Source of the DNA: Thermoclostridium stercorarium subsp. stercorarium DSM 8532 | GTDB taxonomy: Bacteria > Bacillota > Clostridia > DSM-8532 | Length of the DNA stretch: 24,000 bases | Direction: 5' to 3' | Assembly: GCF_000331995.1 (NCBI RefSeq) | Contig: NC_020134.1 | Coordinates: forward strand, 2,430,627-2,454,626 | Part shown: positions 4,662-23,787 of the stretch, piece after piece | Position numbering within the stretch: the stretch's first letter is position 1 | How the letters are laid out: each line of letters opens with the position of its first letter | The notes under the pieces: generated by a model | What the model was told of the DNA's origin: nothing | What the model saw: the letters and a program-made list of their open reading frames with translations, nothing else | The model's database searches: none | Made by a program: the position numbers and the translations under genes

Positions 4662-4687
4662 ACCCTGATGTCACCCCAAATCCTTTC

Positions 4688-6394: not shown

Positions 6395-6397
6395 CAG

Positions 6398-6856
6398 TTA
6401 ATCCCCCTTTTTTAAAAGAGAGGTAAACCTTTCCTGCATCTCCTCGGCTATTCTTTCAGCACGGGTCACTACCATAATCGTATCATCTCCGGCAATTGTA
6501 CCGACAATCTCGGGCCAGCCCAGAGAATCAATTGCGGAAGCCACCGCCTGGGCCATTCCGGGTAAGGTCTTAACAACAAGGATATTATTGGCATAATCGC
6601 TGGAAACATACCCTTCCCGAAGTATTGTCAAAAGCCTGTCGCTGATTACGCTTGAGTCATTGCTCATTGCCTTGTACCTGGCCTTCCCGTCGGGACTTGT
6701 AACCTTTACGAGCCGCAATTCCTTGATATCCCTCGATACCGTTGCCTGGGTAACGTCCATACCGTATTCCTTCAGTTTTGCCACAAGTTCATCCTGGGTT
6801 TCAATATCATAATTTTCAATTATTTCAAGAATCTTAGCGTGCCTGTTGTATTTCAT
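6398..6856 (-). CDS. argR: Arginine repressor ArgR/AhrC
   Basis: 152 aa. RHAKILEII...ETQDELVAKLKEYGMDVTQATVSRDIKEL winged-helix region and C-terminal GTIAGDDTI oligomerisation/arginine-binding motif. Sits 3 nt upstream of recN. Confidence 0.9.
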   Translation of the reverse strand: MKYNRHAKILEIIENYDIETQDELVAKLKEYGMDVTQATVSRDIKELRLVKVTSPDGKARYKAMSNDSSVISDRLLTILREGYVSSDYANNILVVKTLPGMAQAVASAIDSLGWPEIVGTIAGDDTIMVVTRAERIAEEMQERFTSLLKKGD

Positions 6857-6933
6857 AGGCTTCTCCTTTCATCTTTACTGAAATAACCTGGATTTTACAA
6901 ATTGGCAAATTTTATATCCATAAACTGTTTCAT

Positions 6934-7809: not shown

Positions 7810-7885
7810 TGGCAGTTTCTCCTCTATTGACTAATTCTATTATACAGTTAACCCGAATAAAAATACAACAGAATAAAACGAGGGT

Positions 7886-8683
7886 TCATTTAAGTTCGGC
7901 ATGGGCTGCCTTAACAACCTCATCAACAGGCTTAAAATCATGCTCTTCCAAACTCCTGGCGATATACAGAAGATATTCTATATTGCCTTCAGGTCCCTTT
8001 ATTGGCGAATATGAAAGACCTTTTACTGTGAAACCAAGCTCTTTTGAAAAGTCAATTATTTTCCCAATAACTTCCATGTGAACGGCAGGATCTTTTACAA
8101 CCCCTTTTTTCCCAACCTTTTCCCTGCCCGCTTCAAACTGTGGCTTAATAAGGCAGACCATGCTTCCGCCGTGTTTCAGCAACTGCTTTGCGGGAGGTAT
8201 GATTTTGGTAAGTGAAATAAACGACACGTCAGCAGTGGCAAAATCCACGAACTCACCAATATCTTCAGGTTTGACATATCTGAAATTTGTCCGCTCCATC
8301 ACCACCACCCTGCTGTCGTTTCTCAGCTTCCACGCAAGCTGGCCGTACCCCACGTCAACGGCATAAACCTTGACCGCACCGTTTTTTAACATGCAGTCGG
8401 TAAAGCCTCCGGTCGAAGCTCCTATGTCAATACATACCTTTCCGGTCAGATCAATGCCGAATTCACTGAGCGCCTTTTCAAGCTTTAACCCGCCCCTGCT
8501 GACATAAGGAATAGGGTTTCCCCTTATTTCCAGTTCGGCTTCGGTATCAACCTGAAAACCGGGCTTATCCTCAACCACTCCGTTTACAAGCACAAGACCT
8601 TCCATAATTGCCCTGCGCGCTTTTTCGCGGCTGTCAAAATATCCTTTGTTAACAAGATGTATGTCAAGCCTCTCCTTTGCCAT
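7886..8683 (-). CDS. tlyA: TlyA-family rRNA 2'-O-methyltransferase (S4 domain plus FtsJ-like MTase; YqxC-like)
   Basis: 265 aa. N-terminal RLDIHLVNKGYFDSREKARRAI (S4-like) and DIGASTGGFTDCML SAM-binding motif. Its start codon abuts the dxs stop codon. Confidence 0.85.
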   Translation of the reverse strand: MAKERLDIHLVNKGYFDSREKARRAIMEGLVLVNGVVEDKPGFQVDTEAELEIRGNPIPYVSRGGLKLEKALSEFGIDLTGKVCIDIGASTGGFTDCMLKNGAVKVYAVDVGYGQLAWKLRNDSRVVVMERTNFRYVKPEDIGEFVDFATADVSFISLTKIIPPAKQLLKHGGSMVCLIKPQFEAGREKVGKKGVVKDPAVHMEVIGKIIDFSKELGFTVKGLSYSPIKGPEGNIEYLLYIARSLEEHDFKPVDEVVKAAHAELK

Positions 8684-10585
8684 TTACATATCTCCTCTGC
8701 TCTTCAGCCTTTTAAGAACCCTTTCCGCCAGACTTTTGGAATCAAGGCCATACTTATGATACAAAAGTTCCCTCTTTCCGTGTTCTATCGGTATGTCCGG
8801 GAACGCAGCCACTTCAACGGGGATGTTCATTCCCGCTTCGTTAAGTTTAAACAGGGCTATGCTCCCAAAACCTCCGCTTTTTATATGGTCCTCAACCGTC
8901 ATAAGCAGACAGGTTTTCTTTAGCGATTTACACAGCAACCCGGTATCAAAAGGTTTTATAAAACGATAGTACAAAACATCACTGTGTATTCCGTATTTTT
9001 CAAGTTCCTTTGCCGCCTCAACGGCTATCTCCAGCATATGCCCGGTGACTGCGATGGTAATGTCTCCTCCGTCCATAATCTTGACGGCCTTTCCAAACTC
9101 TATAGGAATGTCGGGCGCCAGATTTCTCTTCCCCTGCCCTCTCGGATATCTGATCGCAATCGGCCCTTTTCCATCCTCCACCGCAAACTCGAGCATTTTC
9201 TCCAGTTCGTCATAATCGGCGGGTGACATTATGGTTATATTCGGCAGTGTTGAAAACAGCGCTATATCATATATACCCTGATGGGTTTCCCCGTCGTCAC
9301 CCACAATTCCCGCCCGGTCAACGGCAAAAATAACATTAAGATTCATCAGTGAAACATCGTGTATAATCTGGTCATAAGCCCTTTGCAGAAAAGATGAATA
9401 AACTGCCACAACGGGTCTCAGTCCTCTGATGGCCAGCCCCGCGGCCATTGTGACGGCATGCTGTTCGGCAATCCCCACGTCAAAAAAGCGTTTCGGGAAT
9501 TTCTCACTGAAAAGACTAAGCCCTGTTCCTTCAGGCATTGCAGCCGTTATAGCCACAATTTCTTTATGCTTTTCGGCCAGTTCCACAAGTTTTTTGCCGA
9601 AAACTTTGGAAAAACTTCCGTTGCTTTCAGACAACACCTTGCCCGTTTCCACGTCGAACGGCGAAACGCCGTGGTACTTCTGCGGTTTCTCCTCAGCAGG
9701 GGAATAACCTCTGCCTTTTTTGGTGCAAACATGTATAAGAACTGGTTCCTTCAGGTTTTTGACTCTCTGGAAAACCCTGTACATTTCCGATATATTATGT
9801 CCGTCCAGCGGTCCGTAATAATGAAACCCCAGTTCTTCAAAGAAGACACCCGGAAGTAACAAATATTTCAAAGAACCTTTTACCTTATGCAAAACCTTTC
9901 TGGCCGATTTACCAATAGCGGGTATGTTATCTACCAGGGTCTGGAAATCGGTTCTCACCTTATAGTAAATGGGTTCTGTCCGTATTCGGCTGAGGTAACG
10001 CGACAAAGCCCCGACGTTTTTTGATATGGACATTTCATTGTCGTTCAGAACAACAATTAGGTTTGTTTTACTGTTTCCGGCGTCGTTCAGCGCTTCAAAG
10101 GCCATGCCTCCTGTCAGCGCCCCGTCGCCGATTACCGCAATGACATTGTAATTATCCCCCATCAGATCCCTTGCCCTGGCCATACCAAGAGCCGCCGATA
10201 TGGACGTTGAACTGTGACCGGTATTAAAACAGTCATGCTCACTCTCGGTTATTTTTGGAAAACCCGAAATGCCGCCCATCTGTCTGATGGTAGCAAGTTG
10301 ATCCCTTCTTCCGGTCAATATCTTATGCACATAGGTCTGATGGCCTACATCCCATATTATTTTATCCCTCGGCGACTGGAAAACGGTATGTAAAACAATG
10401 GTCAGTTCAACCACGCCAAGGTTTGAAGCAATATGCCCACCCGTCTGGGATATTTTTTCGATTAAAAAACTCCTTATTTCCCCGGCAAGGGTTTGAAGGC
10501 AGCACATTTTCAGGTTCTTCAAATCTTCAGGCCCGTTTATGTTCTGAAGGACTCCCGCCGAACACAAACAAATTTTTCCGTCCAA
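8684..10585 (-). CDS. dxs: 1-deoxy-D-xylulose-5-phosphate synthase
   Basis: 633 aa. GHIASNLGVVELT, GHQTYVHKILTGR, GDGALTGGMAFEALN (ThDP motif) and AEQHAVTMAAGLA. The annotated start is TTG at 10585 with GAAGGAAA upstream. The exact start is uncertain; an in-frame TTG lies 6 codons downstream. Confidence 0.93.
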   Translation of the reverse strand: MDGKICLCSAGVLQNINGPEDLKNLKMCCLQTLAGEIRSFLIEKISQTGGHIASNLGVVELTIVLHTVFQSPRDKIIWDVGHQTYVHKILTGRRDQLATIRQMGGISGFPKITESEHDCFNTGHSSTSISAALGMARARDLMGDNYNVIAVIGDGALTGGMAFEALNDAGNSKTNLIVVLNDNEMSISKNVGALSRYLSRIRTEPIYYKVRTDFQTLVDNIPAIGKSARKVLHKVKGSLKYLLLPGVFFEELGFHYYGPLDGHNISEMYRVFQRVKNLKEPVLIHVCTKKGRGYSPAEEKPQKYHGVSPFDVETGKVLSESNGSFSKVFGKKLVELAEKHKEIVAITAAMPEGTGLSLFSEKFPKRFFDVGIAEQHAVTMAAGLAIRGLRPVVAVYSSFLQRAYDQIIHDVSLMNLNVIFAVDRAGIVGDDGETHQGIYDIALFSTLPNITIMSPADYDELEKMLEFAVEDGKGPIAIRYPRGQGKRNLAPDIPIEFGKAVKIMDGGDITIAVTGHMLEIAVEAAKELEKYGIHSDVLYYRFIKPFDTGLLCKSLKKTCLLMTVEDHIKSGGFGSIALFKLNEAGMNIPVEVAAFPDIPIEHGKRELLYHKYGLDSKSLAERVLKRLKSRGDM

Positions 10586-10645
10586 TTGAGTTTCCTTCTT
10601 TCAACCTTAAAATCCGAAGCAAATTTGCGAGTTCCGTAATTGTAT

Positions 10646-10674
10646 ATTTTACTAAAGGATAAAAGTTAAATCAA
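10646..10674 (-). promoter_or_regulatory. Sigma-A-type promoter upstream of dxs
   Basis: On the minus strand: TTGATT (10674-10669), 17 nt spacer, TAAAAT (10651-10646), about 60 nt upstream of the dxs start. Confidence 0.4.
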
Positions 10675-10762
10675 TTCTTTACTGCCATTTAATGGAACAT
10701 GAGAAACGATTCTGCGACGGTCACTCTGAGAAGATGAAAATAAGCTAAATATAATTACTGAG

Positions 10763-11203
10763 CTAATTTAAAATTATGCCGGTTATAATTCCCAATGCCG
10801 CTCCGGCAACTACCTCGATAGGGGTGTGCCCCAAAAGTTCCTTTAACTGTTTATCAAGCTGTATGTTCTCATGGGAATTTACAAGCTTGTTCAGAACTTC
10901 GGCCTGCTTGCCCGCCGCCCTTCTTACCCCGGCTGCGTCGGCCATAACGACAAGTGAAAAAACAACCGCCAGTGCAAAAATATCCGACGTAAACCCGTTA
11001 TGTATGCCCAGTATGGTTGCCAGCGACACAGTAAAAGCGGTATGAGAGCTCGGCATTCCGCCTGAGCCTATCAATTTTCTGAAATCAAGCTTTCGGGTTT
11101 TAACATAATTATGAAAAAATTTAATGCTCTGGGCCAAAAACCAAGTCAGTACAGGTGTGGTAATGGCTCTGTTACTCAGAACATCGGTGAAAAATTTCAG
11201 CAT
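10763..11203 (-). CDS. Divergent PAP2 family membrane protein (DUF212, YuiD-like; acid phosphatase/vanadium haloperoxidase-related)
   Basis: 146 aa. GGMPSSHTAF and MADAAGVRRAAGKQAEVLNKL motifs are characteristic of the DUF212/divergent PAP2 family. GAGGTGAG SD. Confidence 0.8.
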   Translation of the reverse strand: MLKFFTDVLSNRAITTPVLTWFLAQSIKFFHNYVKTRKLDFRKLIGSGGMPSSHTAFTVSLATILGIHNGFTSDIFALAVVFSLVVMADAAGVRRAAGKQAEVLNKLVNSHENIQLDKQLKELLGHTPIEVVAGAALGIITGIILN

Positions 11204-11219
11204 CGCTCACCTCATCAGG

Positions 11220-12116
11220 CTAATTTCTTCTTTCGGCGATATAATAAGCAATTTCCTTAAGAAACCATGCTCTTTCCCCAAACACATCCAAAGACTCAAC
11301 GGCTTTCCTCGTAACTTCCCGAAGCATTTCCTTTGCCCCGTCCAGACCATACAGCGACACATAGGTTGTTTTCCTGTTCCTTTCATCGCTCCCTACGGGT
11401 TTGCCCAGCTCCTCGATTGTGCCTTCCACATCAAGGATATCGTCCCTTATCTGGAATGCGATGCCGATATTTTCTGCATATTCGGTCAGGGCTTTTATTT
11501 TATCCTCCGAAAGTCCTAAAAAAACAGCCGGAACAATTACGCTTGCCGTAATCAGGGCCCCTGTCTTCTTTCTGTGCATGGTTTTCAGCTTCGTGGCAGA
11601 AACCTGCGTGCCTTCAGACTCCATGTCAATGACCTGACCCGCAATCATTCCGTCCCGGCCTGCGGCCCTGGCAATTATACATGAGGCTTTAACCCAGTGT
11701 TCCATTTTGTCCCCCGCATTTGCCGAAGCCTCAAAAAGAAGGGAAAACGCCTCATTCAGCAATGCATCACCGGCAAGAATTGCCATGGCCTCGCCGAACA
11801 CCTTATGATTTGTTAATTTTCCGCGGCGGTAGTCATCGTTGTCCATTGCAGGCAAGTCATCATGTATAAGCGAATAAGTATGAATCATTTCAATGGCCGC
11901 GGCAAAAGGCATCACTTCCTGAGGATCCCCGGACAACATTTTTGTCACGGCCAGCATTAAAACAGGCCTTATTCTTTTTCCACCCGCCATTACACTGTAG
12001 CTCATGGATTCTACAAGCCTTTTTTCGGGCACTTCTCTATTCAGTCTGTCAAAATACTTAACCAAATAATCATCAACCAGCGTGGTTAAATTCCTCATTT
12101 CTTCCTTAAAATTCAT
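11220..12116 (-). CDS. ispA: Polyprenyl (farnesyl/geranylgeranyl) diphosphate synthase
   Basis: First Asp-rich motif LIHDDLPAMDNDDYRRG and second Asp-rich motif FQIRDDILD. I place the start at ATG 12116 (MNFKEEM...), which forms an ATGA overlap with the xseB stop and has GGGGGAAG upstream. The track ORF extends to a GTG at 12152 that lies inside xseB. Confidence 0.87.
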   Translation of the reverse strand: MNFKEEMRNLTTLVDDYLVKYFDRLNREVPEKRLVESMSYSVMAGGKRIRPVLMLAVTKMLSGDPQEVMPFAAAIEMIHTYSLIHDDLPAMDNDDYRRGKLTNHKVFGEAMAILAGDALLNEAFSLLFEASANAGDKMEHWVKASCIIARAAGRDGMIAGQVIDMESEGTQVSATKLKTMHRKKTGALITASVIVPAVFLGLSEDKIKALTEYAENIGIAFQIRDDILDVEGTIEELGKPVGSDERNRKTTYVSLYGLDGAKEMLREVTRKAVESLDVFGERAWFLKEIAYYIAERRN

Positions 12117-12346
12117 TGTTCTTCCCCCGGTGAAAAAGGTTCTTCCCTGCACTCGCCGTTAGCATCGATAAGTTTTACAATTTTCTTTTCGGTCTCATCA
12201 AGCTTTTTGGCGCAATATGCCGATAACTCAACGCCCTTCTGGAAGAGTTCCAGAGATTTTTCCAGAGGGATATCCCCGTTTTCCAAAAGCCTAACAATTT
12301 CCTCCAGTTGCTTTACGGCCTCTTCATAACTTAAATTCAGTTCCAT
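12113..12346 (-). CDS. xseB: Exodeoxyribonuclease VII small subunit
   Basis: 77 aa. SYEEAVKQLEEIVRLLENGDIPLEKSLELFQKGVELSAYCAKKL is the canonical XseB helix-hairpin sequence. Confidence 0.9.
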   Translation of the reverse strand: MELNLSYEEAVKQLEEIVRLLENGDIPLEKSLELFQKGVELSAYCAKKLDETEKKIVKLIDANGECREEPFSPGEEQ

Positions 12347-12370
12347 TTTCCTTTCCCCTTGTCCTTATTG

Positions 12371-13567
12371 TTATATTTCCATTTTTTCGGCCACGCATTT
12401 TATCTTGCCGTCAGCAAGAATTATGTCCAGTTTGTCTCCGTTATGTACCTGCTCTGCCGATTTTATAATATTACCGTTTTTCATTGTAATGCTGTAACCC
12501 CTGGCCAGAACGGTAAGCGGGCTAAGCACGTCAAGTTTTCCGCACAAAACAGAAAGCATTCCCTTTTCCTTTTCAATTCTTCGCTTCATTGCGTCAGCAA
12601 TGTTTTTCCTAATAATTTCCAGATCCATTTTTTTCTGATTTACCCTGTCCAGAGGATGTCTCATGGACGGGCTTTTCATCAGTTGTTCCAGTTTCAGTCT
12701 TTCACACTGAATTCTGTTGGTTATGGCTTTTTTCAAACGCAGCCTCAAATCCATAACATTTTTAACCAGCATTTCCTTTTCAGGAATAACCAGCTCTGCT
12801 GCCGCGGAAGGTGTTGGCGCCCTGAGATCGGCGACAAAATCAGAGATGGAAAAGTCGGTTTCATGCCCCACTGCTGAAATAACCGGGATTTCGGACCTGT
12901 AGATACTCCATGCTACAATCTCCTCATTAAACGGCCAAAGTTCTTCCAGCGAACCTCCTCCCCGTGCCAGGATAATCACGTCTGCTGCTTTGTGCCGGTT
13001 AATAAAATCCAGCGCATACGCTATCTGCCTTGCCGCATCTTCTCCCTGCACCTGCACGGGGAACAGCTTCAGAACCGCGTTGGGGAACCTTCTGAAAAGA
13101 ATATTTATGATATCCCTTATAACTGCGCCGGTAGGAGAAGTAACAACGGCTATACTCCGGGGCAGGTATGGGATTTTCTTTTTTATTTCCGGCCTGAACA
13201 AACCTTCTTTTTCAAGTTTCTGTTTCAGTTGCTCAAAGGCAAGGTATAAATTCCCCAATCCGGCAGGCTCCATATATTCAGGATAAAGCTGGTATGAACC
13301 GCCTGCCTCGTAAATTGATACATATCCTCTGACTATTACTTTCATGCCGTCTTTGGGTTTGAACTTCAGCATCTGATTTTGCGATCTGAACATTACACAT
13401 CTGATTACACTGGATTCATCCTTAAGCGTAAAATACATGTGACCGGACGAGTGCAGCTTGAAATTTGAGATTTCTCCCATTACACACACATCAGACAGGA
13501 TACTGTCGTACGCAAACAAACGTTTTATATATCTTGTAAGCTGAGTTACGGTAATAACTTCCTGCAT
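12371..13567 (-). CDS. xseA: Exodeoxyribonuclease VII large subunit
   Basis: 398 aa. N-terminal OB-fold region (VTVTQLTRYIKRLF...GEISNFKLHSSGHMYFTLKD), catalytic region VVTSPTGAVIRDI...ARGGGSLEELWPFNEE...SAVGHETDFSISDFVAD. Confidence 0.95.
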   Translation of the reverse strand: MQEVITVTQLTRYIKRLFAYDSILSDVCVMGEISNFKLHSSGHMYFTLKDESSVIRCVMFRSQNQMLKFKPKDGMKVIVRGYVSIYEAGGSYQLYPEYMEPAGLGNLYLAFEQLKQKLEKEGLFRPEIKKKIPYLPRSIAVVTSPTGAVIRDIINILFRRFPNAVLKLFPVQVQGEDAARQIAYALDFINRHKAADVIILARGGGSLEELWPFNEEIVAWSIYRSEIPVISAVGHETDFSISDFVADLRAPTPSAAAELVIPEKEMLVKNVMDLRLRLKKAITNRIQCERLKLEQLMKSPSMRHPLDRVNQKKMDLEIIRKNIADAMKRRIEKEKGMLSVLCGKLDVLSPLTVLARGYSITMKNGNIIKSAEQVHNGDKLDIILADGKIKCVAEKMEI

Positions 13568-13569
13568 TT

Positions 13570-13998
13570 TTACTGCTCCTCATCGGCTTTCAGCCCGGCC
13601 GCAATTTTGCCAAGTACACCGTTTATAAAATTCTTTGACTGATCGGTACCGTATTTTTTGGCCAGCTCAACGGCTTCGTTTATTGAAACGTTTACAGGAA
13701 TATCCTTACGGTATTTAAGTTCATAAACGGCAAGGCGCATTATGGCCAGGTCCACTTTTGGCATTCTTTCCAGCCGCCAGCCGATTGAATGGACCTGAAT
13801 TAAATTGTCTATTTCCTCCTTATGGTCTATAACGCCATGAATAACGTCAAGAAAAAACTCCCTGTCCAAATTCTCCAGATCTTCGTTCTCTTCAAGAAAC
13901 ATCCTTATCTGTTCCTCTATGTCGTCATCCCTGAGCTGGATCTGATACAGAAGTTTCATTGCATTCTCTCGGGTTATTCTTCTGCTCAATTTGTCCAC
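13570..13998 (-). CDS. nusB: Transcription antitermination factor NusB
   Basis: 142 aa. [14 protein letters not shown]...[13 protein letters not shown]...[17 protein letters not shown]...FINGVLG. The track start is GTG 13998; an in-frame TTG 3 codons downstream (13989) has better spacing to the AAGGTGGA SD. Confidence 0.9.
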
Positions 13999-14293: not shown

Positions 14294-15273
14294 ATGAGTA
14301 CGCTTAAGGATGTGGCTGAAAAAGCCGGTGTTACAGTAACAACTGTTTCCCGTATGCTTAATAACAGGGGTTATGTCAGTGAGAAAACAAGGAACAAAAT
14401 CCTTAAAGCCATGAAGGAGTTAAACTACCGCCCCAACGAATTTGCCAGGGCATTATCGCTGCAGAGAAGCAACTTCATTGGCCTGATTGTTCCGTCTGCC
14501 AGCAATATGTTCTTCAGCAAGGTAATTGACAGCGTCGAACGCCAGGTTTCAAAACATGGTTACAAATTGCTGCTCTGCACGTCAAATCTTGAACCAAAAA
14601 AGAATTCGAATATTTTGACATGCTGAGTGCAAATAAAGTTGCAGGAGTAATTATAGCAAGCCACACTCAGAATTTGGACAAAAAAATAAACATTGATGCT
14701 CCTGTGATTTCCATAGACAGAATCATTTCGCCTGACATACCGGCTATATGTTCAGACAATTACCAGGGCGGAGTGCTTGCAGCCGAACATCTGATTTCCA
14801 AAGGCTGCAAGAAGCTTGCACATATAAGCGGGAGCATACATTTGAACATGGATGCAAACAAACGTTACTACGGTTTCCGGGACGTGTGTGAAAAAAAAGG
14901 AATCCCTCATGTACTCATCGATGCCACCGAGGAACAATTCCTTTCAATGAACTATGAATCTATAATAAATATACTGCTGGATAATCATCCTGACGTGGAC
15001 GGAATATTCACATCCAATGACATTATAGCCGCTCAGGCGATTACAACATGCAGCAAACGCGGCATCAAAGTCCCCGAACAAATCAAGGTTGTGGGCTACG
15101 ATGACATTGATCTGTGCAAAATCTATAATCCGGCAATTACCACAATTCGTCAGTCAATTGACGATATTTGCATGTATGCCGTTGAAAGCATAATATCCAA
15201 AGTTGAAAACAATAAACCCATTCCGTCATGCATCATATTCCCCGTAACATTAATAGAAAGGGAGACAACCTGA
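14294..15273 (+). pseudogene. LacI-family transcriptional regulator interrupted by a -1 frameshift (or a sequencing error) in an A6 tract
   Basis: ORF 14294-14626 encodes the HTH (TLKDVAEKAGVTVTTVSRMLNN...YRPNEFARAL) and the start of the sugar-binding core. ORF 14620-15273 continues the core (...VVGYDDIDLCKIYNPAITTIRQ). Reading GAACCAAAAAAGAATTC with one extra A gives EPKKEFEYFDMLSANKV, the contiguous sequence expected for this family. Confidence 0.85.
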
Positions 15274-15307: not shown

Positions 15308-16135
15308 CTACTTTATCGCTCCCTGAACTACACCTTCTATAATATATTTCTGCGAAAACAGATAAACAACAAGAATGGGTATAATGGTCAATACAATGCC
15401 CGCCATTAACGGTGCATAGTCAACACTGTATGTGTTGAAAAAGTTGTATGTGGACAACGGCAGTGTTCTTTCCGCGGGCGACAGTAAAATAAGGCTTGGC
15501 AGCAAATAGTCGTTCCATATCCACAAAACGTCCAATATTAATACCGTAACAAGCACGGGTTTTAAAAGCGGAAATACAATCCGGAAAAACAGTCTAATTT
15601 TGTTGCATCCGTCAATAAGCGCCGATTCCTCCATTTCCCCAGGAATATTTTTTATAAATCCGTGGAATATGAATATCGCAAATGCCTGTCCAAACCCCAT
15701 GTACATGAAAATTAAAACCCATTTGCTGTTCATTAAATTCAGGCTGCCGTAAATGCTTACCAGCGGTATCATTATTGCCTGAAAAGGAACAATCATCGAA
15801 GCCACCAGTATTGCAAATATTACCTTGTTTATCTTCCACGGATGCCTTACAAGGAAATAGGCTGCCATCGATGATGTGAGCAGTATCAGAATAATGCTGA
15901 TAACAGTGATAACCACACTGTTTCCGATTGCCTGCAGAAAATTCATCTTGTTAAAAGCATTTACATAATTGCCGAATCCTATTTTCTCAGGCAACGCGAA
16001 AGGATTTGTAACAAACTGCTGCGTGGTTTTAAATGAATTGATTACCATCAGGTAAAACGGCATTATGAATATTATCAGCATTAAATATATCAGAACGTAT
16101 CTAATGTATTTTAATTTGCCTTTCCTTTCTTTCAC
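15308..16135 (-). CDS. Carbohydrate ABC transporter permease (CUT1, MalG/UgpE-like)
   Basis: 275 aa, 6 TM pattern, EAA loop region EESALIDGCNKIRLFFRIVFPLLKP. GTG start overlaps the upstream stop (TAGTG), with GGAGG 5 nt upstream. Confidence 0.9.
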   Translation of the reverse strand: MKERKGKLKYIRYVLIYLMLIIFIMPFYLMVINSFKTTQQFVTNPFALPEKIGFGNYVNAFNKMNFLQAIGNSVVITVISIILILLTSSMAAYFLVRHPWKINKVIFAILVASMIVPFQAIMIPLVSIYGSLNLMNSKWVLIFMYMGFGQAFAIFIFHGFIKNIPGEMEESALIDGCNKIRLFFRIVFPLLKPVLVTVLILDVLWIWNDYLLPSLILLSPAERTLPLSTYNFFNTYSVDYAPLMAGIVLTIIPILVVYLFSQKYIIEGVVQGAIK

Positions 16136-17019
16136 TATGCCTCCACCTCAAATCTTTTAGTTAAAAGAACCTGGGTTACCGCTACAATTGCCACTGTAAC
16201 GAAGAATATAATCGCTTCAGCCTGTCCAATACCATATTCATTTGCCTGGAAGGCTTTCTGGTATATATGCATAGCTGCAAGCCTGGTGGAACCATATGGC
16301 TGACCGTTTGTCAGTGCGAGATTGAGATCATAAGTCATAAATCCCCGTGAAATAATTATAAAGAAACATATAATAAACGACGGTACCATCAACGGCATTG
16401 TTATATGCCATAGCCTTCGGAAACCTGTAGCTCCGTCAATTTCAGCCGCCTCATCAACATCTTGCGGTATGCTTACAAAGCCGGCTATATAAATTATCAT
16501 CAGATAACCCGCGTATTGCCATACCGTAACGATAATCATCGAGACTATAGCTCTTTCAGGATGAGTGAGGAATGAAGTTTTGAGAAACTGGTAATCCAAG
16601 ATTTCCCCCAGTTTAGTAACCACATTTGAAAAAAGGAACTTCCATATGTAACCGAGCACTATGCCTCCTATAAGATTGGGTGTAAAGAAACCTGCCCTGA
16701 GAAAATCTCGTCCTTTTATGTTGCCTGTCAGAAGAAATGCCAGCAAAAAAGCCAATATATTACAGAATATGGTTGAATACAGGACATACTTCAGTGTTTT
16801 TCCAAACTGCTGCCAGAATTCCTTGTCGGAAAAAACAGCCTTAAAATTGTTTATTCCTACAAATTCGTATGACATTTTTATCGGACTGTAATCGGTAAAC
16901 GTCAGATAAATACCGTATACAAGCGGTATTAACAATACACATGTAAATGCAAAAAGCGAAGGTCCCATAAACAAAACAAAACTACCTATTTTGTTTAGTA
17001 GTTTCCTGTTACCATTCAT
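16135..17019 (-). CDS. Carbohydrate ABC transporter permease (CUT1, MalF/UgpA-like)
   Basis: 294 aa polytopic protein. EAA loop DEAAEIDGATGFRRLWHITMPLMVP. Confidence 0.9.
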   Translation of the reverse strand: MNGNRKLLNKIGSFVLFMGPSLFAFTCVLLIPLVYGIYLTFTDYSPIKMSYEFVGINNFKAVFSDKEFWQQFGKTLKYVLYSTIFCNILAFLLAFLLTGNIKGRDFLRAGFFTPNLIGGIVLGYIWKFLFSNVVTKLGEILDYQFLKTSFLTHPERAIVSMIIVTVWQYAGYLMIIYIAGFVSIPQDVDEAAEIDGATGFRRLWHITMPLMVPSFIICFFIIISRGFMTYDLNLALTNGQPYGSTRLAAMHIYQKAFQANEYGIGQAEAIIFFVTVAIVAVTQVLLTKRFEVEA

Positions 17020-17100: not shown

Positions 17101-18473
17101 TTACTTATTTGTTGACCTCCAGTATTCGTTAATTCCTTTTGCAAGTTCCTCTCTTGTAATTGCTCCTGCTAAATATTTCAACATCAGATTACCGGTTTCG
17201 GTCCAGACGTCTCCGGAAATATAGGAGAAAACGCCCAGGTTGATTGTTTTGCCCCTCTGTGCATATTCGGCTATAGAAGTTGTCATTGAGTTATATGTTA
17301 TATCTTTTCTGACATTCTTGTAAGGCATATAAAAACCCTGATCAAGGAAGAACTGCTGCCCTTCGGGATCGGTAAGCATCCACCCGAGAGCCTTCAGCGC
17401 AGCTTCCTGCTGTTCTGCTGTACTCTGGGATTTGTTGATACACTGGAATTTGGGTAATACCATTACAACTTCGGAGTTACCGTAAGCGTTCGGATCATTG
17501 CTCCACGGAACGGGTATGAAACCATATTCGGTATCAATGTTTTCCATAGTCACAAGTGTGGTCCACAGCCAGTCACCCATAAAGAACGTTGCACACTTGC
17601 CCTCGGCAAAAGCCTGAGCGTCCCTGTTAAAGTCTGCCACCAGCGGATCGGCTTTGTTGTAATTATATTTGGCAAGCAAATCAAATGTATCCATATACCC
17701 CTGGAAAATCGGATCGTCTGCTATGTCTATTTCTCCTGACTTTATTTTTTCTATAAAGTTAACACCGTCTTCGGTTTTACGGCCTTGTACGGCATAAACA
17801 AGAGTAAGATAATGTCCGCCTAACGACCAGTTTGCGCCATGCAGCATTGTGGCAGGCACACCGGCTTCTTCACATTTTTTGAAAAATGCCTCCAACGCAT
17901 CTCTTGTGTTAATGCTTTTAGGATCGAAATTCCCTTCGCCGAATATTTCATCAACCACTCTCTTGTTATAGAGCAGGCCATACCCCTGAACACTCCACGG
18001 AGCTCCAAGTATTTTGCCGTCAAATGTACCTGAGGCAATGGCGTCCTCTTCGGCATAACTTAACCAGGGTGCATTCTCTTCTGTGAACTCAAGAAGATGA
18101 TCCTGATATTCTATTACGTTGGCCGGGTCTACATTCATAAAGGTCGGTGCATTTCCGGATGCATAAAGGGACTGCAGTTTTTCCTGCTGTCCTTCTCCGA
18201 TACCGGTCGGAATTAATTCAATTACAACATCGGGATTAAGCTCATTATATCTTTTGAACATTTTTTCAAACATTCATTAACTTCTGCGGAAGTGTTAAAG
18301 TATGTAATTGTTACTGTCTTTTTGCTTTCCGTTTTTCCAGAAGTGCCGGTGTCCGAAGTGCTTTGACCTGTACCGCTGCTGCTGTTACCTGTTGTAGTCT
18401 TTCCTCCGCACGCAGCCAGTAATGTGGTAAGAACGGCAACAATCAGCAGAATTGAGAATATCTTTTTTTTCAT
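17101..18473 (-). pseudogene. CUT1-family extracellular solute-binding lipoprotein interrupted by a frameshift (or sequencing error)
   Basis: ORF 18473-18222 encodes a signal peptide with lipobox (LLAAC/GG), a Ser/Thr/Gly linker and the first strand (KKTVTITYFNTSAEVNE). ORF 18273-17101 continues as a family-1 SBP (MFEKMFKRYNELNPDVVIELIPTG...). The frames can be joined by adding one nucleotide in 18261-18276, for example A6 to A7 in TTGAAAAAATG. Confidence 0.85.
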
Positions 18474-18530: not shown

Positions 18531-18570
18531 ATATTACTATAACCATGCACGTATGTCAACCCATTAACAT
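18531..18570 (-). promoter_or_regulatory. Promoter P2 (transporter genes) with an overlapping LacI-type operator variant
   Basis: On the minus strand: TTGACA (18559-18554), 17 nt spacer, TAATAT (18536-18531), about 50 nt upstream of the SBP ATG (SD AAGGAGG). The 18-mer ATGTCAACCCATTAACAT (18553-18570) matches the P1 palindrome at 15/18 positions and covers the -35 box. Confidence 0.55.
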
Positions 18571-18661: not shown

Positions 18662-20374
18662 CTAATCCCTATCATTTGAACTGAATGAAAAAACGTTAAC
18701 ACCCTCGTTGTTTATGGCTTTTATACTGAAATCGTAAGTCGCCAAATCGGCTACAAGATTAGCAATATTTCCGTCTTTAACCCAATTTATTATCAGAATC
18801 TGTTCATCGGTATTGTCAACAGTAATCTTTGAATCAAAATCAAAAGCAGGGAATGTATTTCTGAATCTCAATAATGACAGCTGCTGCCTTACTATCTTTT
18901 TCTTCATGCCCTCATAAATCTGTTCCCATGTGAGGTTCGTCCGGTTAATTTCCTTATGCCCCCGTTTTATGGCTTCATAATCATTTTTGCCTGCAAACAG
19001 GTCCAGGTACCACACCTGAGGTTTACCAGGCATAAAAATCTGAATGGCCCTCGCCAGCAGCATCTTTTTGTCGTTTTCACCCAGGGCGCTGTAGTACGTG
19101 CAGTTAACCTGGTAATACATATTTTTTCTTCCGTGCAGATCTTTTATATAACCACCGCGTTTTACAAGCGTATCAATCAGTTTATCTATATACCGGTCGG
19201 GCAATAGGCCTTTTAAATCCAAAAGCGGAATTCCGTCATGACATCCGAGCATATTGACAACCCTTATTTCCTTTTCCTGTAATTCTCTGAACCACTTTAC
19301 CAAATATTCGCCGGTATGCCTCTCCAGAGCATCTATAATAAGCCCAGGCAGGAAAAAGTCATAGGTCAGATATCCTTTCTCGGCAAGCTTTTCATGTATT
19401 TTTTCCTCATATTTTGAATGAATTTCGGGCAAAAGCACAAGTCCGTATTTGTCTGCAATTTCCTTTATTTTTTCCAGGAGCTCCCACGTTTCGGGCTCAT
19501 TGAAGAAATTTCTAAGCCCCGGTTTTTTGGATACATAGGCAAATGCGTCAAGTCTTACAATTTTTGCACCGTACCGGGATAATTTACCCAGTGTTTCCTC
19601 ATAGAATTCCCATACTTTCGGAGACCGAACGTTTAAATCCATTTGTCCAAGGTATTTCCGCCTTGATTCCAATAAATCAACCACTTTGTCCTTATAACGT
19701 GAAAATTCTCCGAAATCGATCTCTTTTGGTTTTTTCCCCGAAGAAATTTCGGCGTTTATTCTGTCCGTCAGCTTCTGAGCCGTAGGATACTGAATATCCA
19801 AGGCGTATACCAGATCTATTGCATCCAGTTTATCGTATCTTACTTCCTGATAAAACGTATTCCAGTAAGGAACTTCCCTGCCGTCAGGAAACCTGACGAA
19901 GAGAATGGGAAGCCCAGGTTTTCTGAAAAACATGTTTTCTATCAAATCCTCTTCAGGCATTATATAGCCTTCACCGGTCATTCGGCCGCAGCCTTCCCAG
20001 AACTTGTTCCAGTCAATAAAGAAATCTTTGTATTCAGAATTTTCACCTTTTTTCAAAATATCCCTGAACTGATGCGAAAGCACCGACAAATGATTCAGAA
20101 CAAAATCAAGTTTCAGCTCAATATTTAAATTTTTGAGTTTCTCCAGGTCCTCAGCCGTTGCCAGTTGTTCATTAAGTTCATAGTCAATGACCGAAAAACC
20201 GCGATCCAAATCGGTGTTAAAAATACTGGGAAGTATGTAAAAAGACTGAAATACGTTTTTAAGTTCATCCATTTGAAGAAACTTAAGTATGTCCGATAAC
20301 GTTCCGCCCAGACTGTCAGGATATGCATTAAACATGGGTCCGGCATTAATTTTATTACAAGGCGCTTTATTCAT
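18662..20374 (-). CDS. GH13 subfamily-18-type (sucrose-phosphorylase-like) alpha-glucoside phosphorylase, specificity unknown
   Basis: 570 aa. The motifs YPDSLGG, DRGFSVIDY, DFVLNHLS, WNTF, IVRLDAFAY (nucleophile Asp276), LLPEIH (acid/base Glu317), LGCHDG, YQVNCTYYSALG and AGKNDYE..INR align with my recollection of Firmicute sucrose phosphorylases. ATG 20374 overlaps the kinase stop (ATGA), with GGAGGG 6 nt upstream. Confidence 0.85.
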   Translation of the reverse strand: MNKAPCNKINAGPMFNAYPDSLGGTLSDILKFLQMDELKNVFQSFYILPSIFNTDLDRGFSVIDYELNEQLATAEDLEKLKNLNIELKLDFVLNHLSVLSHQFRDILKKGENSEYKDFFIDWNKFWEGCGRMTGEGYIMPEEDLIENMFFRKPGLPILFVRFPDGREVPYWNTFYQEVRYDKLDAIDLVYALDIQYPTAQKLTDRINAEISSGKKPKEIDFGEFSRYKDKVVDLLESRRKYLGQMDLNVRSPKVWEFYEETLGKLSRYGAKIVRLDAFAYVSKKPGLRNFFNEPETWELLEKIKEIADKYGLVLLPEIHSKYEEKIHEKLAEKGYLTYDFFLPGLIIDALERHTGEYLVKWFRELQEKEIRVVNMLGCHDGIPLLDLKGLLPDRYIDKLIDTLVKRGGYIKDLHGRKNMYYQVNCTYYSALGENDKKMLLARAIQIFMPGKPQVWYLDLFAGKNDYEAIKRGHKEINRTNLTWEQIYEGMKKKIVRQQLSLLRFRNTFPAFDFDSKITVDNTDEQILIINWVKDGNIANLVADLATYDFSIKAINNEGVNVFSFSSNDRD

Positions 20375-21333
20375 CCGTTACCCTCCCCTGAATTTACGTG
20401 GCTCCCTTCAGTCATTGCCTTTAAAAATTCCTTATACGTTATAATCCTGCCGTCGGATGAAACAATAATCTTGGCTTTTACAGCCTGCGATATTAACAGT
20501 TCATGTTCTATCTCCAGTACCATCGCGGTAAACGGGCTGTCCACTCCCCGGTCCCTGTTACGCTGTTTACGAAATTCCAAAGTTTCTTGTGGTGTACTGC
20601 TTAGCAAAATCGGAATATCAATGCCTCTAAGATAATGGCTGTTTCCATGGGTCCATTCTATTATCAATACCCTGACGTCTTTGAAATCAACCTCTTCATA
20701 CCAAATCTCTTCAGGTTTTCTTCCCATGCGTTTGAGATATATTTTGCTTATACCGTTTTTAAACTGTGAAATTATTTCGTTGAGTTCACAAAAATCAATT
20801 TCGTTCGGAGTACCCAGATAATTTCTGAGTCCCAGTTTTCCTTCACTGTGATAAATCTCAAGCCATGGGTAATCGCTTATAAACCTTGGATCGGTATCAT
20901 CACAATTGCTTTGCAGCTTATTAAGAATCTCTTTTCTTTCTTCCGTATACTCTCCGTGGGCAATAAGCCCTTTCAGCCCGCTTCGCCTGAAAACCCTAAG
21001 CCGTTCGGCGTCATTGTATTCAGGAATTCTGTGAGGATAATTATCTCCCGATAAGATATAACTGCCTATGCCCGTCTGATTAAGATAGTAAGACAGAAGA
21101 GATGCAATTTCGGACTTACCCGTCCCTGAACCGCCGCATACAGATACAACTGCCTTGTTATGAGCATGCTTCTCAATCATAGGCGTAAGCAAATCCATCA
21201 AAACCGGGGCTATGGCTTTCGCTTTGGTGAGATGAGTAAAATTTATCTGAATTTTATCCCCCGGCATGTCTCCTTTTGGTATACTGTTTAATTCTTCAAT
21301 ATTCTTGAATTTGTCAAATATATTATCACCCAT
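20371..21333 (-). CDS. P-loop kinase of the uridine kinase/phosphoribulokinase (PRK/Udk/GLYK) fold, substrate unknown
   Basis: Walker A VSVCGGSGTGKSE, followed by the strand-Asp motif ILSGDNYPH. The later part (FCELNEIISQFKNG..IYLKRM......VRVLIIEWTHG...IDIPILLSS...LEFRKQRNRDRG) follows the uridine-kinase pattern as I recall it. Start placed at ATG 21333 (MGDNIFDKF, GGTGG 7 nt upstream). The track start, TTG 21408, lies inside the promoter -35 box. Confidence 0.6.
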   Translation of the reverse strand: MGDNIFDKFKNIEELNSIPKGDMPGDKIQINFTHLTKAKAIAPVLMDLLTPMIEKHAHNKAVVSVCGGSGTGKSEIASLLSYYLNQTGIGSYILSGDNYPHRIPEYNDAERLRVFRRSGLKGLIAHGEYTEERKEILNKLQSNCDDTDPRFISDYPWLEIYHSEGKLGLRNYLGTPNEIDFCELNEIISQFKNGISKIYLKRMGRKPEEIWYEEVDFKDVRVLIIEWTHGNSHYLRGIDIPILLSSTPQETLEFRKQRNRDRGVDSPFTAMVLEIEHELLISQAVKAKIIVSSDGRIITYKEFLKAMTEGSHVNSGEGNG

Positions 21334-21378: not shown

Positions 21379-21419
21379 ATTATAAAATATAAAACAAATA
21401 CATGTCAACCGTTTGACAT
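21379..21419 (-). promoter_or_regulatory. Promoter P1 (kinase-phosphorylase operon) with an overlapping LacI-type palindromic operator
   Basis: On the minus strand: TTGACA (21408-21403), 18 nt spacer, TATAAT (21384-21379), about 40 nt upstream of ATG 21333. ATGTCAACCGTTTGACAT (21402-21419) is an 18 bp palindrome with a central CG, 8 of 9 symmetric pairs, and covers the -35 hexamer. Confidence 0.65.
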
Positions 21420-21675
21420 ATAATATAATTCAAATTTACTTTTTTGATTTTTCAGAAGTGCCGGTTCCTTAGAAATGTATATAACTCTTGTATTTTTTTA
21501 AACTGACTTCCGGTTAAAAAAAAAGGAAGTCCTAAAACCTCCTGCAGCTTTAACGCTTTATTCAGACAATTCAGCATCATATCACGGAAACAGAACTTTA
21601 TTAACTATATATGCCTAATAAATTTATCATCGTCTGATTTTTATAATTGGAACGGTGATATTGGGATTTTACGTC

Positions 21676-22467
21676 CTATTTTACAGCCCATTCAATCCCC
21701 TTTTCAATGTATTCATTCCAGAATTTCCAGTCATGGCTTCCCGGCCCTTCCACATATGTATGTTCTATTCCTTCGGACAGAAGAAACTCATGGAATTTTC
21801 TGTTTTCAGCCAGTAAAAAATCCTCTGTTCCACATGCCATGAATATTTCGGGAACCTGTTTCTTTTCCTCCTTTAACTGAAGCACCAGGGCTTCCGGGTC
21901 TTTGTCGCTGCCTTTGACCTTATTGACATCGCCAAACACCCTTGAGTAGTATTTGTAATCTGCAATACCGTCATTATAATCAACGGGTATTCCTGCTATT
22001 TTGTCCACAATCAGTGCAGATGACAACGCAATAATACGCCCGAAAGTTTCTGAGTATTTTAACCCGTTTCTGATGGCTCCGTACCCGCCCATTGACAATC
22101 CGCCGATAAACGTGTTTTCTCTTTTATCTGAAACGGGAAACATCTTGCGTGTGAACTCAACCAGTTCGCAACCAATATATTCGGAATACATTGCTCCGCT
22201 GTCGGTATCATTCAAATAAAAGAAATTTTCCCCGGACGGCATGAAAACAGCGATATTATACTTTGACGAAAACAGCTGCATATTACTGTTGCAAACCCAG
22301 TCCATATGGTTTCCGTGATAACCGTGCAGCAAATAAAGAGCTTTAAAAGGCTGTCCAGACGAATTTCCCCCGCTGCGTGCCTCCATATAATCCAGCGGTA
22401 TAAAAGCGTTAAAAACCGTTAATCTTTTCAGCGCCTTTGAAAAAAAATTAACCTGCAGATAGGCCAT
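21676..22467 (-). CDS. Alpha/beta-hydrolase, putative esterase family (esterase D / tributyrin-esterase / CE1-like)
   Basis: 263 aa. YLLHGYHGNHMDW, nucleophile elbow GGLSMGGYGA, ACGTEDFL (Asp) and GPGSHDWKFW (His). SD GGGGGAG. Confidence 0.8.
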   Translation of the reverse strand: MAYLQVNFFSKALKRLTVFNAFIPLDYMEARSGGNSSGQPFKALYLLHGYHGNHMDWVCNSNMQLFSSKYNIAVFMPSGENFFYLNDTDSGAMYSEYIGCELVEFTRKMFPVSDKRENTFIGGLSMGGYGAIRNGLKYSETFGRIIALSSALIVDKIAGIPVDYNDGIADYKYYSRVFGDVNKVKGSDKDPEALVLQLKEEKKQVPEIFMACGTEDFLLAENRKFHEFLLSEGIEHTYVEGPGSHDWKFWNEYIEKGIEWAVK

Positions 22468-22729: not shown

Positions 22730-22832
22730 AGGTATGACTTTTTAGCACAAATTTACATGATTTACCGCTTAGTGGCATTAGAAATGTCACAAAGGCTGGG
22801 TGGAAGTTTTTTATTTTTCAGGAGGGATTCTT

Positions 22833-23327
22833 ATGTATTGTCCCAAGTGTGGGCACGAGGTCGGAGAGCATATGGTCATTTGCCCGTCCTGTGGGGAGCT
22901 GCTGGAAAACAGGAATAATGACACGGTGAATTCCTTTTCCCAGCCAAACTACGGATGGCAACAGCCTGAGGGTATGCCGAAAATTCAGGATATACCGGAC
23001 TATAAAGTACAGTCCATACTCCTTATCGTATTCAGTGCCATATTATGCTGTGTTTTTTGTCTTCCCATACTTGCATTGCCTTTTGCCATAATTGCCCTTG
23101 TTAACTCCAACAAGATCGAAGCTCATATTGTTGCCGGAAATTATGAATACGCCCGTAAGGTTTCGGAAAATACAAAAAAATGGTGCTGGGCAAGCTTTGG
23201 TATACTTTTGGGTTCAATAGCAATAAGTATTGTGTTTGCAATTGTATTTATGAACAGCGGATTATACAAGGAATTTATGAATGAGTTCATGAAGCAGTAT
23301 GAATACTATTATTACAATTTCCAATAA
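22833..23327 (+). CDS. Zinc-ribbon plus CD225/dispanin (IFITM-like) family membrane protein
   Basis: Start placed at ATG 22833 (AGGAGGG 5-6 nt upstream) rather than the track GTG 22800. N-terminal MYCPKCGHEVGEHMVICPSCG is a CxxC...CxxC ribbon. The C-terminal half (DYKVQSILLIVFSAILCCVFCLPILALPFAIIALVNSNKIEAHIVAGNYEYARKVSENTKKW + TM) matches the CD225 pattern: reentrant/TM helix with a CC motif, then the S-x-K-V...G-x-Y-x-x-A amphipathic segment, then a second TM. Confidence 0.75.
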   Translation: MYCPKCGHEVGEHMVICPSCGELLENRNNDTVNSFSQPNYGWQQPEGMPKIQDIPDYKVQSILLIVFSAILCCVFCLPILALPFAIIALVNSNKIEAHIVAGNYEYARKVSENTKKWCWASFGILLGSIAISIVFAIVFMNSGLYKEFMNEFMKQYEYYYYNFQ

Positions 23328-23346
23328 AATACATAAAAAATTAAAA

Positions 23347-23376
23347 AAATGGCTTACTTTTTTCGGTAAGCCATTT
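23347..23376 (-). terminator. Intrinsic-terminator-like hairpin that is functional in the minus orientation
   Basis: AAATGGCTTAC (23347-23357) pairs with GTAAGCCATTT (23366-23376), giving an 11 bp stem and 8 nt loop. Read on the minus strand, the stem is followed by TTTTTTTAATTTTTT. Read on the plus strand, it is followed by ATCCGTTATA with no U-tract. Confidence 0.5.
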
Positions 23377-23388
23377 ATCCGTTATATA

Positions 23389-23787
23389 ATGCTGGTGCTT
23401 TCATGTGCGGTTATAATAACCTGCTGCGTTATAGTATACAGAATAGACCCGGCAAAGGTTCCCCTTACACCTCCGTGCTCCTTTCGTTATTTCACAGGCC
23501 TGTATTGCCCGGGATGCGGAATGACGCGCGCATTGCATGCTGCGCTGAATTTAAGGTTTTCCGACGCTTTTTCATATAACCTGCTGTGGCCTCTCATTAC
23601 CATGTTTGTATTGATGTCCGTCGGTATGTGGTTTTCATTCCTGGTGACGGGTAAATGTCCGTTCAACCCGTTTAACAGGTTTCTCAAAAGATATTCGGCG
23701 GCGGCTTACGTGTTTATAATCGTCCTTTTTGCATTCTGGATTTTAAGAAATATTCCTGTTTATCCGTTTACGTTGCTGGCGCCGTAA
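23389..23787 (+). CDS. DUF2752 family membrane protein (CPGCG motif)
   Basis: PPCSFRYFTGLYCPGCGMTRALHAALNLRFSDAFSYNLLWPL followed by TM helices is the DUF2752 hallmark. I prefer ATG 23389 (132 aa). The track start 23299 overlaps the upstream gene by 29 nt and would place the 23347-23376 hairpin inside the coding sequence. No strong SD precedes either start. Confidence 0.72.
   Translation: MLVLSCAVIITCCVIVYRIDPAKVPLTPPCSFRYFTGLYCPGCGMTRALHAALNLRFSDAFSYNLLWPLITMFVLMSVGMWFSFLVTGKCPFNPFNRFLKRYSAAAYVFIIVLFAFWILRNIPVYPFTLLAP

Follow-up and report, generated by a model that had tools for sequence, protein, structure and literature searches.

A coupled kinase-phosphorylase gene pair of Thermoclostridium stercorarium as the probable core of a conserved sucrose route

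What do a small P-loop kinase and a GH13_18 phosphorylase accomplish together, when the stop codon of the first gene overlaps the start codon of the second? The question is raised by a stretch of 24,000 nucleotides of Thermoclostridium stercorarium subsp. stercorarium DSM 8532 (contig NC_020134.1, positions 2,430,627 to 2,454,626; the whole stretch is hereafter the window), whose minus strand carries an open reading frame (ORF) for a stand-alone P-loop sugar kinase of 320 amino acids (20371..21333, ATG at 21333) followed by one for a GH13_18 protein of 570 amino acids (18662..20374). An earlier reading of the window, made without database searches and referred to below as the sequence-only reading, had offered three models: the kinase phosphorylates the aglycone that the phosphorylase releases (a), the kinase acts first and its product is then phosphorolysed (b), or the acceptor is a new one altogether (c). 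The second is favoured by the phosphorylase clade, the active site residues, the homology of the kinase to a sucrose kinase and the conserved linkage of the two genes. We propose that the pair is probably the conserved core of a "phosphorylate, then phosphorolyse" sucrose route independent of the phosphotransferase system (PTS).

Both ORFs are real genes, since homologue matches of the kinase exceed 3,700 (stand-alone forms predominate in the databases), the phosphorylase scores above the cutoff of its equivalog model (see below), and the same 320- and 570-residue products are called in public annotations of four T. stercorarium genomes or assemblies whose DNA is 99.7-99.9% identical to the window. 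The start codon of the phosphorylase (ATG, 20374-20372) and the stop codon of the kinase (TGA, 20373-20371) overlap as an ATGA at 20371-20374, and a GGAGGG ribosome-binding site lies inside the kinase gene (20381-20386), with a 6-nt spacer to the phosphorylase ATG, the complete coupling junction occupying 20371..20386 on the minus strand as read from the sequence. This translational coupling had been pointed out by the sequence-only reading together with the motifs of the two proteins, and all of them are present: GGSGTGKS (residues 67-74, Walker A, 21112-21135) and SGDNY (residues 95-99) in the kinase, and RLDAFAY (274-280), LPEIH (315-319) and GCHDG (377-381) in the phosphorylase. A longer kinase start, a TTG at 21408, is unlikely; the ATG at 21333 is favoured because homologues align from it and because a perfect promoter-like site (described below) would start transcription downstream of the TTG.

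Concerning the identity of the phosphorylase, it matches the NCBIfam model TIGR03852 ("sucrose_gtfA", sucrose phosphorylase equivalog) with 349 bits against a cutoff of 334, a model which does not tell sucrose phosphorylase from sucrose-6F-phosphate phosphorylase, and the match is broken into two stretches, a sign of an insertion in the protein. Its best PDB match is 6S9U (E = 2.4e-174, 584 bits, 48-54% identity), with weaker matches to the sucrose phosphorylases 7QQJ/7QQI (294-296 bits), TtSPP (6S9V, 283 bits), glucosylglycerol phosphorylase (221 bits) and BaSP, a sucrose phosphorylase from Bifidobacterium adolescentis (198 bits). The AlphaFold2 (AF2) model (predicted local distance difference test score, pLDDT, 86.6; predicted template modelling score, pTM, 0.87) also ranks 6S9U at the top in Foldseek (E = 1.4e-63, TM 0.93, root-mean-square deviation 1.9 A). 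6S9U is IcSPP from Ilumatobacter coccineus, which, like RgSPP of Ruminococcus gnavus, is strict for sucrose 6F-phosphate (Franceus 2019, PMC6720575). The catalytic residues of IcSPP are D223, E264 and D327, and fructose 6-phosphate is contacted by R152, K364, Q378 and K434 and also by E264, next to the conserved loop-A residues K373 and Y377 (PMC6720575). In the window enzyme D276 (19547-19549), E317 (19424-19426) and D380 (19235-19237) align with the catalytic triad, whereas R151, K411, Q422, K474, K417 and Y421 align with R152, K364, Q378, K434, K373 and Y377, respectively. Across 73 orthologues the triad is invariant, and the +1-subsite and loop-A positions are invariant or nearly so; the GH13_18 assignment and the intact catalytic apparatus of the sequence-only reading are thus borne out. 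Because the specificity residues are conserved and the closest similarity is to IcSPP and RgSPP, we predict a sucrose-6F-phosphate phosphorylase (EC 2.4.1.329) of the IcSPP/RgSPP clade, a placement based on match scores and residues; the insertion, which lies in domain B (see below), calls for caution as to how strictly it would prefer sucrose-6F-phosphate over sucrose.

For the kinase, Pfam yields only marginal P-loop matches, with Zeta_toxin and APS_kinase at threshold. The AF2 model (pLDDT 93.2, pTM 0.89) finds as its best PDB matches type I pantothenate kinase, uridine-cytidine kinase, FrcK (3C8U) and phosphoribulokinase, all at 10-16% sequence identity, in agreement with the Udk/PRK/PanK fold named by the sequence-only reading. 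Database labels of the family are "adenylylsulfate kinase" at NCBI and often "alpha-galactosidase" at JGI, the latter being the first pointer to AgaSK. The Rgaga1 locus of R. gnavus E1 comprises genes for a regulator, for an ATP-binding cassette (ABC) importer, for AgaSK, which joins a GH36 alpha-galactosidase to a sucrose kinase, and then for RgSPP (PMC6521584, PMC7688924). The isolated kinase domain of AgaSK phosphorylates sucrose, with a Km of 1 mM and a kcat of 2.4 per s, and in Clostridium sp. L2-50 the kinase has a gene of its own (PMC7688924). Since the 2YFN chain of R. gnavus AgaSK stops at residue 720, the comparison was made through a close orthologue, P0174, a protein of 933 residues with GH36 domains (1211 bits against 2YFN) and a C-terminal PRK-family kinase; the window kinase is 44% identical to this kinase domain over residues 60-297 (E = 9e-62), and carries no GH36 fusion. 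By homology, the window kinase is a stand-alone relative of the AgaSK sucrose-kinase domain. The pairing is not the undescribed one that the sequence-only reading took it for, as the R. gnavus AgaSK gene lies directly 5' of that of RgSPP and this link is in the literature (PMC6521584, PMC7688924, PMC7178133).

How far the pair is conserved was assessed by scanning one genome per GTDB species with a 12-sequence kinase alignment, and at least 544 species genomes encode a relative of the kinase. Neighbourhoods were analysed for 80 loci, the closest relatives (kinase identity 54-73%), and more distant ones were sampled by single look-ups. The sequence-only reading had suggested looking for conserved adjacency across genomes, and it is found: a phosphorylase orthologue (56-78% identity) lies directly 3' of the kinase gene on the same strand in 77 of the 80 loci, with a median gap of 12 bp at these 77 junctions, 13 of which are overlaps and two in-frame fusions. 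The loci span Bacillota, Bacteroidota, Actinomycetota, Alphaproteobacteria and Myxococcota, and include isolates (Herbinix hemicellulosilytica, Anaerocolumna, Clostridium grantii, Mangrovibacterium marinum, Lachnotalea glycerini) as well as metagenome-assembled genomes labelled Bacteroidales, Actinomycetota, Alphaproteobacteria and Myxococcales. The linkage is still present at 37-39% kinase identity. An exhaustive search of cluster representatives returned two fusions of the kinase with a GH13_18 phosphorylase, P0128 (868 residues) and P0188 (754 residues), and two fusions with other partners, P0123 with a PF00756 esterase and P0270 with a GH100 invertase-like domain. P0270 (locus L089, 3316-5571; 751 residues, the added domain being of the alkaline/neutral invertase type, with a NIF3/DUF34 gene nearby) is a further tie of the kinase family to sucrose, with a different downstream enzyme.

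The same arrangement surrounds the characterised enzymes. The IcSPP gene itself (locus L090, 7351-9572; I. coccineus, AP012057.1) overlaps through a GTGA with an upstream gene for a 217-residue PRK-family kinase homologous to that of the window (E = 3e-20, 26% identity), which a GH32 gene precedes, with an ABC importer, LacI and MalK alongside; a word search of the IcSPP structure paper (PMC6720575) for its gene context found nothing. In an AgaSK-type locus (L085) the kinase gene overlaps by 8 bp with that of a 492-residue phosphorylase, 55% identical to the window enzyme, and two more genes of the phosphorylase clade adjoin a PRK-family gene. The sequence-only reading had named as damaging to its proposal a phosphorylase of a characterised clade beside a housekeeping uridine kinase with no conserved linkage; the phosphorylase does fall inside such a clade with matching specificity residues, but the kinase is not Udk and the linkage is conserved.

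The proposed route would run as follows. Sucrose, or a sucrose-containing or acylated precursor trimmed in the cell, would enter by the adjacent CUT1 ABC importer, powered by a shared ATPase encoded elsewhere; alternatively, intracellular sucrose would be freed from raffinose, fructans or esters. The kinase, judged by its homology to the R. gnavus sucrose kinase, would then phosphorylate sucrose at the expense of ATP. Two enzymes that are tightly coupled and repeatedly fused usually catalyse consecutive steps, and for this reason the predicted product is sucrose-6F-phosphate, which the GH13_18 enzyme would split with inorganic phosphate into glucose 1-phosphate and fructose 6-phosphate, two sugar phosphates ready to enter glycolysis. 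The cost would be one ATP per sucrose, as for sucrose phosphorylase plus fructokinase, with no free fructose and no need of a fructokinase. Genes of the PfkB fructokinase type are rare around the pair (3/80 loci), which fits a route releasing fructose 6-phosphate rather than free fructose. A separate GH36 gene in an AgaSK-like arrangement is found in six of the 80 loci and a GH32 gene in five, and these partners, together with the GH100-like fusion, suggest sucrose as the common intermediate.

Uptake and control are encoded next to the pair. On the minus strand follow the gene of a CUT1-type ABC solute-binding lipoprotein (17101..18473; Pfam SBP_bac_1 and SBP_bac_8), split into two ORFs, and two ABC permease genes (16135-17019 and 15308-16135; BPD_transp_1 in both), whose orthologues are syntenic in L005, L007, L008, L016, L022 and L034. 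A divergent LacI-family repressor gene lies at 14294..15273 on the plus strand (Pfam LacI and Peripla_BP_3). No ABC ATPase gene occurs anywhere in the window, and with these Pfam domains the importer-plus-LacI setting without an ATPase, as the sequence-only reading had it, stands. The resulting order (esterase, kinase, phosphorylase, binding protein, two permeases, divergent LacI) is shared with L005, the closest relative. Among the 80 loci ABC permease pairs are found in 43, LacI orthologues in 28, and transporters of the major facilitator superfamily, in Bacteroidota, in eight.

A promoter-like site of the sigma-70 type, TTGACA-18-TATAAT, lies at 21379..21408 (minus strand), about 45 bp 5' of the kinase ATG, and agrees with the consensus at 12 of 12 positions. 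Its -35 hexamer is overlapped by a LacI-type operator-like palindrome, TGTCAACCGTTTGACA (21403..21418). A second promoter-like site, TTGACA-17-TAATAT (18559..18531, minus strand), weaker than the first and recognised by its consensus match alone, precedes the solute-binding protein gene, as does an operator-like site related to TGTCAACCGTTTGACA, namely TGTCAACCCATTAACA (18554-18569). From these signals, LacI would bind the palindrome over the kinase -35 hexamer and probably also the related site before the transporter genes. The palindrome motif TGTCAANCGNTTGACA is present in 15 of 92 loci, mostly 70-180 bp 5' of the kinase gene, and all 15 encode a LacI orthologue; it is a candidate regulon motif of this sucrose module.

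Several observations weigh against the proposed route. The first is regiochemical: the only biochemical report on the kinase family, as far as it is cited in PMC7688924, gives a product phosphorylated on the glucose moiety, which the phosphorylase could not use. Second, the window kinase itself has no PF00485 match at E <= 0.01; the PF00485 cutoff of 22 is exceeded by two of its homologues, P0174 with 31.6 bits and P0188 with 27.2 bits. Third, the solute-binding protein gives no clue to specificity: the PDB entry that it matches best bears the name "maltose-binding protein", and it matches RafE weakly. Fourth, two genes of the window are frameshifted when compared with three or four further sequences of T. 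stercorarium. The solute-binding protein gene has a 1-bp deletion at 18274 (TT, against TTT elsewhere), which cuts the signal peptide of the lipoprotein off from its mature domain, and the LacI gene one at 14601 (A7, against A8 elsewhere); in the other strains they are intact and encode 457 and 326 residues, respectively. The importer may hence be inactive in the window strain, or the frameshifts may be sequencing errors: either they are strain-specific pseudogenes, with a derepressed operon and a dead importer, or errors in homopolymers. Finally, plain sucrose use does not account for the frequent esterase neighbours described below, and the true substrate of the subfamily with insertions in both enzymes could differ from sucrose.

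These insertions deserve a closer look, as they may bear on the acceptor. Relative to AgaSK-type domains, the kinase has an insertion of 46 residues (residues 114-159, ~20857-20994, minus strand; alignment to P0174), and the AF2 model of the phosphorylase shows a three-helix insertion in domain B (residues 181-237, ~19664-19834, minus strand), confidently predicted with a pLDDT of 89-96. Domain B, together with B', shapes the acceptor site (PMC6720575). Both insertions are helical and are missing from proteins of the AgaSK/RgSPP type and from those of I. coccineus, and they co-occur in 70 of 72 loci; since L076 and L082 combine a long kinase with a short phosphorylase, we make no claim of obligatory co-evolution. 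The insertions may serve as a contact surface between kinase and phosphorylase or change the acceptor site.

The esterases are the second peculiarity of these loci. Directly 5' of the kinase, an intracellular PF00756 esterase (CE1-like, tributyrin-esterase-like) is encoded at 21676..22467 on the minus strand, probably on a separate transcript, because a terminator-like hairpin (21524-21543) follows its gene. PF00756 orthologues are present in 22 of the 80 loci, often directly 5' of the kinase gene, and other esterase-type neighbours comprise proteins of the beta-lactamase fold (12 loci), BD-FAE (10), CE2 (7), GDSL (7) and COesterase (7). Taken together, the esterase-type genes form eight clusters of seven fold types, at least one being present in 43 of 78 loci and in the same-strand run of the kinase in 36. 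Their distance profile is nearly flat (13.6% of the genes up to 2 kb away, 7-11% at greater distances), a within-locus comparison with no genome-wide baseline. Because esterases recur and are once naturally fused to the kinase (P0123), acylated sucrose, i.e. plant sucrose esters, is suggested as the real feedstock. No literature on bacterial sucrose-ester esterases was found.

Insertions and esterases together feed the first of the rival explanations, a version of model (c) in which the chemistry is as proposed and the long-form pair acts on a modified sucrose or another alpha-glucoside freed by the neighbouring esterases. That the phosphorylase insertion falls in the domain that shapes the acceptor site, and that more than half of the loci examined carry an esterase-type gene, speak for it; however, all fructose-6-phosphate-binding residues of IcSPP are present and invariant, the insertions do not form an obligatory matched set, and the GH36 and GH32 partners point to sucrose. 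A new acceptor as such finds no support. We regard this explanation as unlikely.

A second alternative takes the reported regiochemistry at face value: kinase and phosphorylase would work in parallel, the former making a sucrose phosphorylated at C6 of glucose for some other enzyme, and the latter using sucrose-6F-phosphate from elsewhere, for example taken up from plant material. For AgaSK the reported site of phosphorylation is indeed C6 of the glucose moiety (Bruel 2011, as cited in PMC7688924), and no later paper that resolves the conflict over kinase regiochemistry was found in the literature searched. The R. gnavus authors, moreover, propose import of sucrose-6F-phosphate and draw no connection from the kinase product to the phosphorylase (Tauzin 2019, PMC6521584; PMC7688924), and its physiological source has been called unknown (PMC7178133). 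Such separate branches are nevertheless hard to square with near-universal adjacency, stop/start overlaps and repeated fusions, and GH32, a candidate sucrose-6-phosphate hydrolase, is encoded in just the five loci mentioned. Import of sugar phosphates is not established for CUT1-type importers. The chance that the two enzymes work in parallel seems small to us.

Far less probable is the aglycone kinase of model (a), in which the phosphorylase would cleave glucosylglycerate or glucosylglycerol and the kinase phosphorylate the released glycerate or glycerol. Plant-type glycerate 3-kinase, which the sequence-only reading brought in, is said to have the same P-loop fold, but the phosphorylase scores 584 bits against a strict sucrose-6F-phosphate phosphorylase (6S9U) and 221 against glucosylglycerol phosphorylase, it carries the +1-site residues of the former, the kinase shows homology to a sucrose kinase, and no gene related to glucosylglycerate or glycerate appears among the annotated clusters that recur around the 80 loci; the model finds no support. 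A housekeeping Udk standing by chance beside a sugar gene, an alternative that the sequence-only reading had kept in view and for which the Udk/PanK-like fold and a weak match to the Udk equivalog NF004018 speak, is rejected and has next to no chance, as this match reaches 17 bits against a cutoff of 180, the phosphorylase is adjacent in 77/80 loci and the kinase is found fused to GH36, GH13_18 and GH100-like domains.

A kinase-first sucrose route thus remains the preferred explanation, and it can be stretched further. In its boldest form, the pair would be the core of a widespread, phylum-spanning 6F route that overturns the AgaSK regiochemistry, the T. stercorarium-type subfamily would be fed by intracellular esterases de-acylating imported plant sucrose esters (e.g. 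acetylated or feruloylated sucroses) and would constitute a new class of loci for the use of sucrose esters, and the matched insertions may mediate a kinase-phosphorylase complex. This combination we consider conceivable, if doubtful.

Some further features of these loci and of the window should be mentioned. Recurrent neighbours among loci L005-L084 include NIF3/DUF34 (15), DUF3237 (8), DUF3502 solute-binding proteins (18) and PF06439 3-keto-disaccharide hydrolases (3), and in nine Bacteroidota loci a gene for a neutral-ceramidase-like protein lies directly 5' of the kinase. In an actinomycetotal locus (L019, 3806-5200) a second, divergent GH13_18 gene (31-40% identity) stands 5' of the Abhydrolase_3, GH32, kinase and phosphorylase genes, and may encode a true sucrose phosphorylase beside the kinase-dependent route. 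CP110889.1 is T. stercorarium strain RKWS1 (PMC10019256); in this strain a Transposase_mut (IS256-like) gene, absent from the window and the other strains, lies between the esterase and the CD225/DUF2752 genes (L001, 6259-7485), and its nanopore assembly shows additional homopolymer frameshifts in LacI. The remainder of the window is largely housekeeping (1-13998 and 22800-23787: murJ, cinA, a small GTPase, recN, argR, nadK, tlyA, dxs, DUF212, ispA, xseA and nusB), and also encodes a CD225/zinc-ribbon membrane protein and a DUF2752 protein. Long antisense ORFs that lie within xseA and the phosphorylase gene seem spurious. No literature on sucrose metabolism of T. stercorarium was found.

If the kinase product is the phosphorylase substrate, the pair would supply a source of sucrose-6F-phosphate and conflict, in a testable manner, with the reported regiochemistry of AgaSK. 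Misannotation would be corrected as well, namely of kinases labelled "adenylylsulfate kinase" or "alpha-galactosidase" and of phosphorylases labelled "sucrose phosphorylase". A thermophilic enzyme pair would serve for making sugar phosphates from sucrose, and the association with esterases may point to a so far unstudied way of using plant sucrose esters.

In comparison with known systems, the window kinase resembles the PRK/Udk/PanK P-loop kinases (PF00485) in its predicted fold and in where Walker A lies. Among them is FrcK (3C8U, "putative fructose transport system kinase"), which is also a small P-loop kinase and takes its name from a sugar transport system; the relatives of known structure, at 10-16% identity, act on other substrates, and the window kinase scores below the PF00485 threshold. 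The classical combination of sucrose phosphorylase and fructokinase (B. adolescentis BaSP; gtfA/msm type) uses a GH13_18 enzyme too, but in reversed order, i.e. phosphorolysis followed by a ROK or PfkB kinase acting on free fructose, and the loop-A and +1 residues of BaSP differ from those of the window phosphorylase. This classical route also spends one ATP per sucrose, often with CUT1 importers. TtSPP, from the PTS and phosphofructokinase operon of Thermoanaerobacterium thermosaccharolyticum, catalyses the reaction predicted here (Verhaeghe 2014, as summarised in PMC7178133), but belongs to another GH13_18 clade, has R134 and H344 as +1 residues and is promiscuous; its substrate presumably comes from the PTS and not from an ATP-dependent kinase (PMC7178133).

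Closer is IcSPP, the nearest solved structure, with catalytic and +1-subsite residues common to both enzymes and, at both loci, an overlapping upstream PRK-family kinase gene, an ABC importer and LacI. It differs in lacking the helical insertion of domain B, in its short partner kinase and in the GH32 gene 5' of the latter. Closest is R. gnavus: the kinases belong to one family (44% identity to the domain of P0174) and the phosphorylases to one clade (55% identity to the enzyme downstream of an AgaSK orthologue), and the kinase-then-phosphorylase order, the overlapping junctions and the adjoining ABC importer and regulator are alike. The window differs in its stand-alone, insertion-bearing kinase in place of a GH36 fusion, in a phosphorylase of 570 rather than 492 residues owing to the three-helix insertion, in a regulator of the LacI instead of the AraC type, in an esterase instead of an alpha-galactosidase as partner, and in its host, a thermophilic plant-fibre degrader. 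The kinase-phosphorylase arrangement has been described as spread to few gut Firmicutes only (PMC6521584, PMC7688924). What is already known, hence, is the pairing in a few gut bacteria; what is new is a conserved coupled pair across hundreds of species, including the source organism of IcSPP, and, in the T. stercorarium locus, the stand-alone kinase, the insertions in both enzymes, the esterase partner, the predicted LacI control and the thermophilic host.

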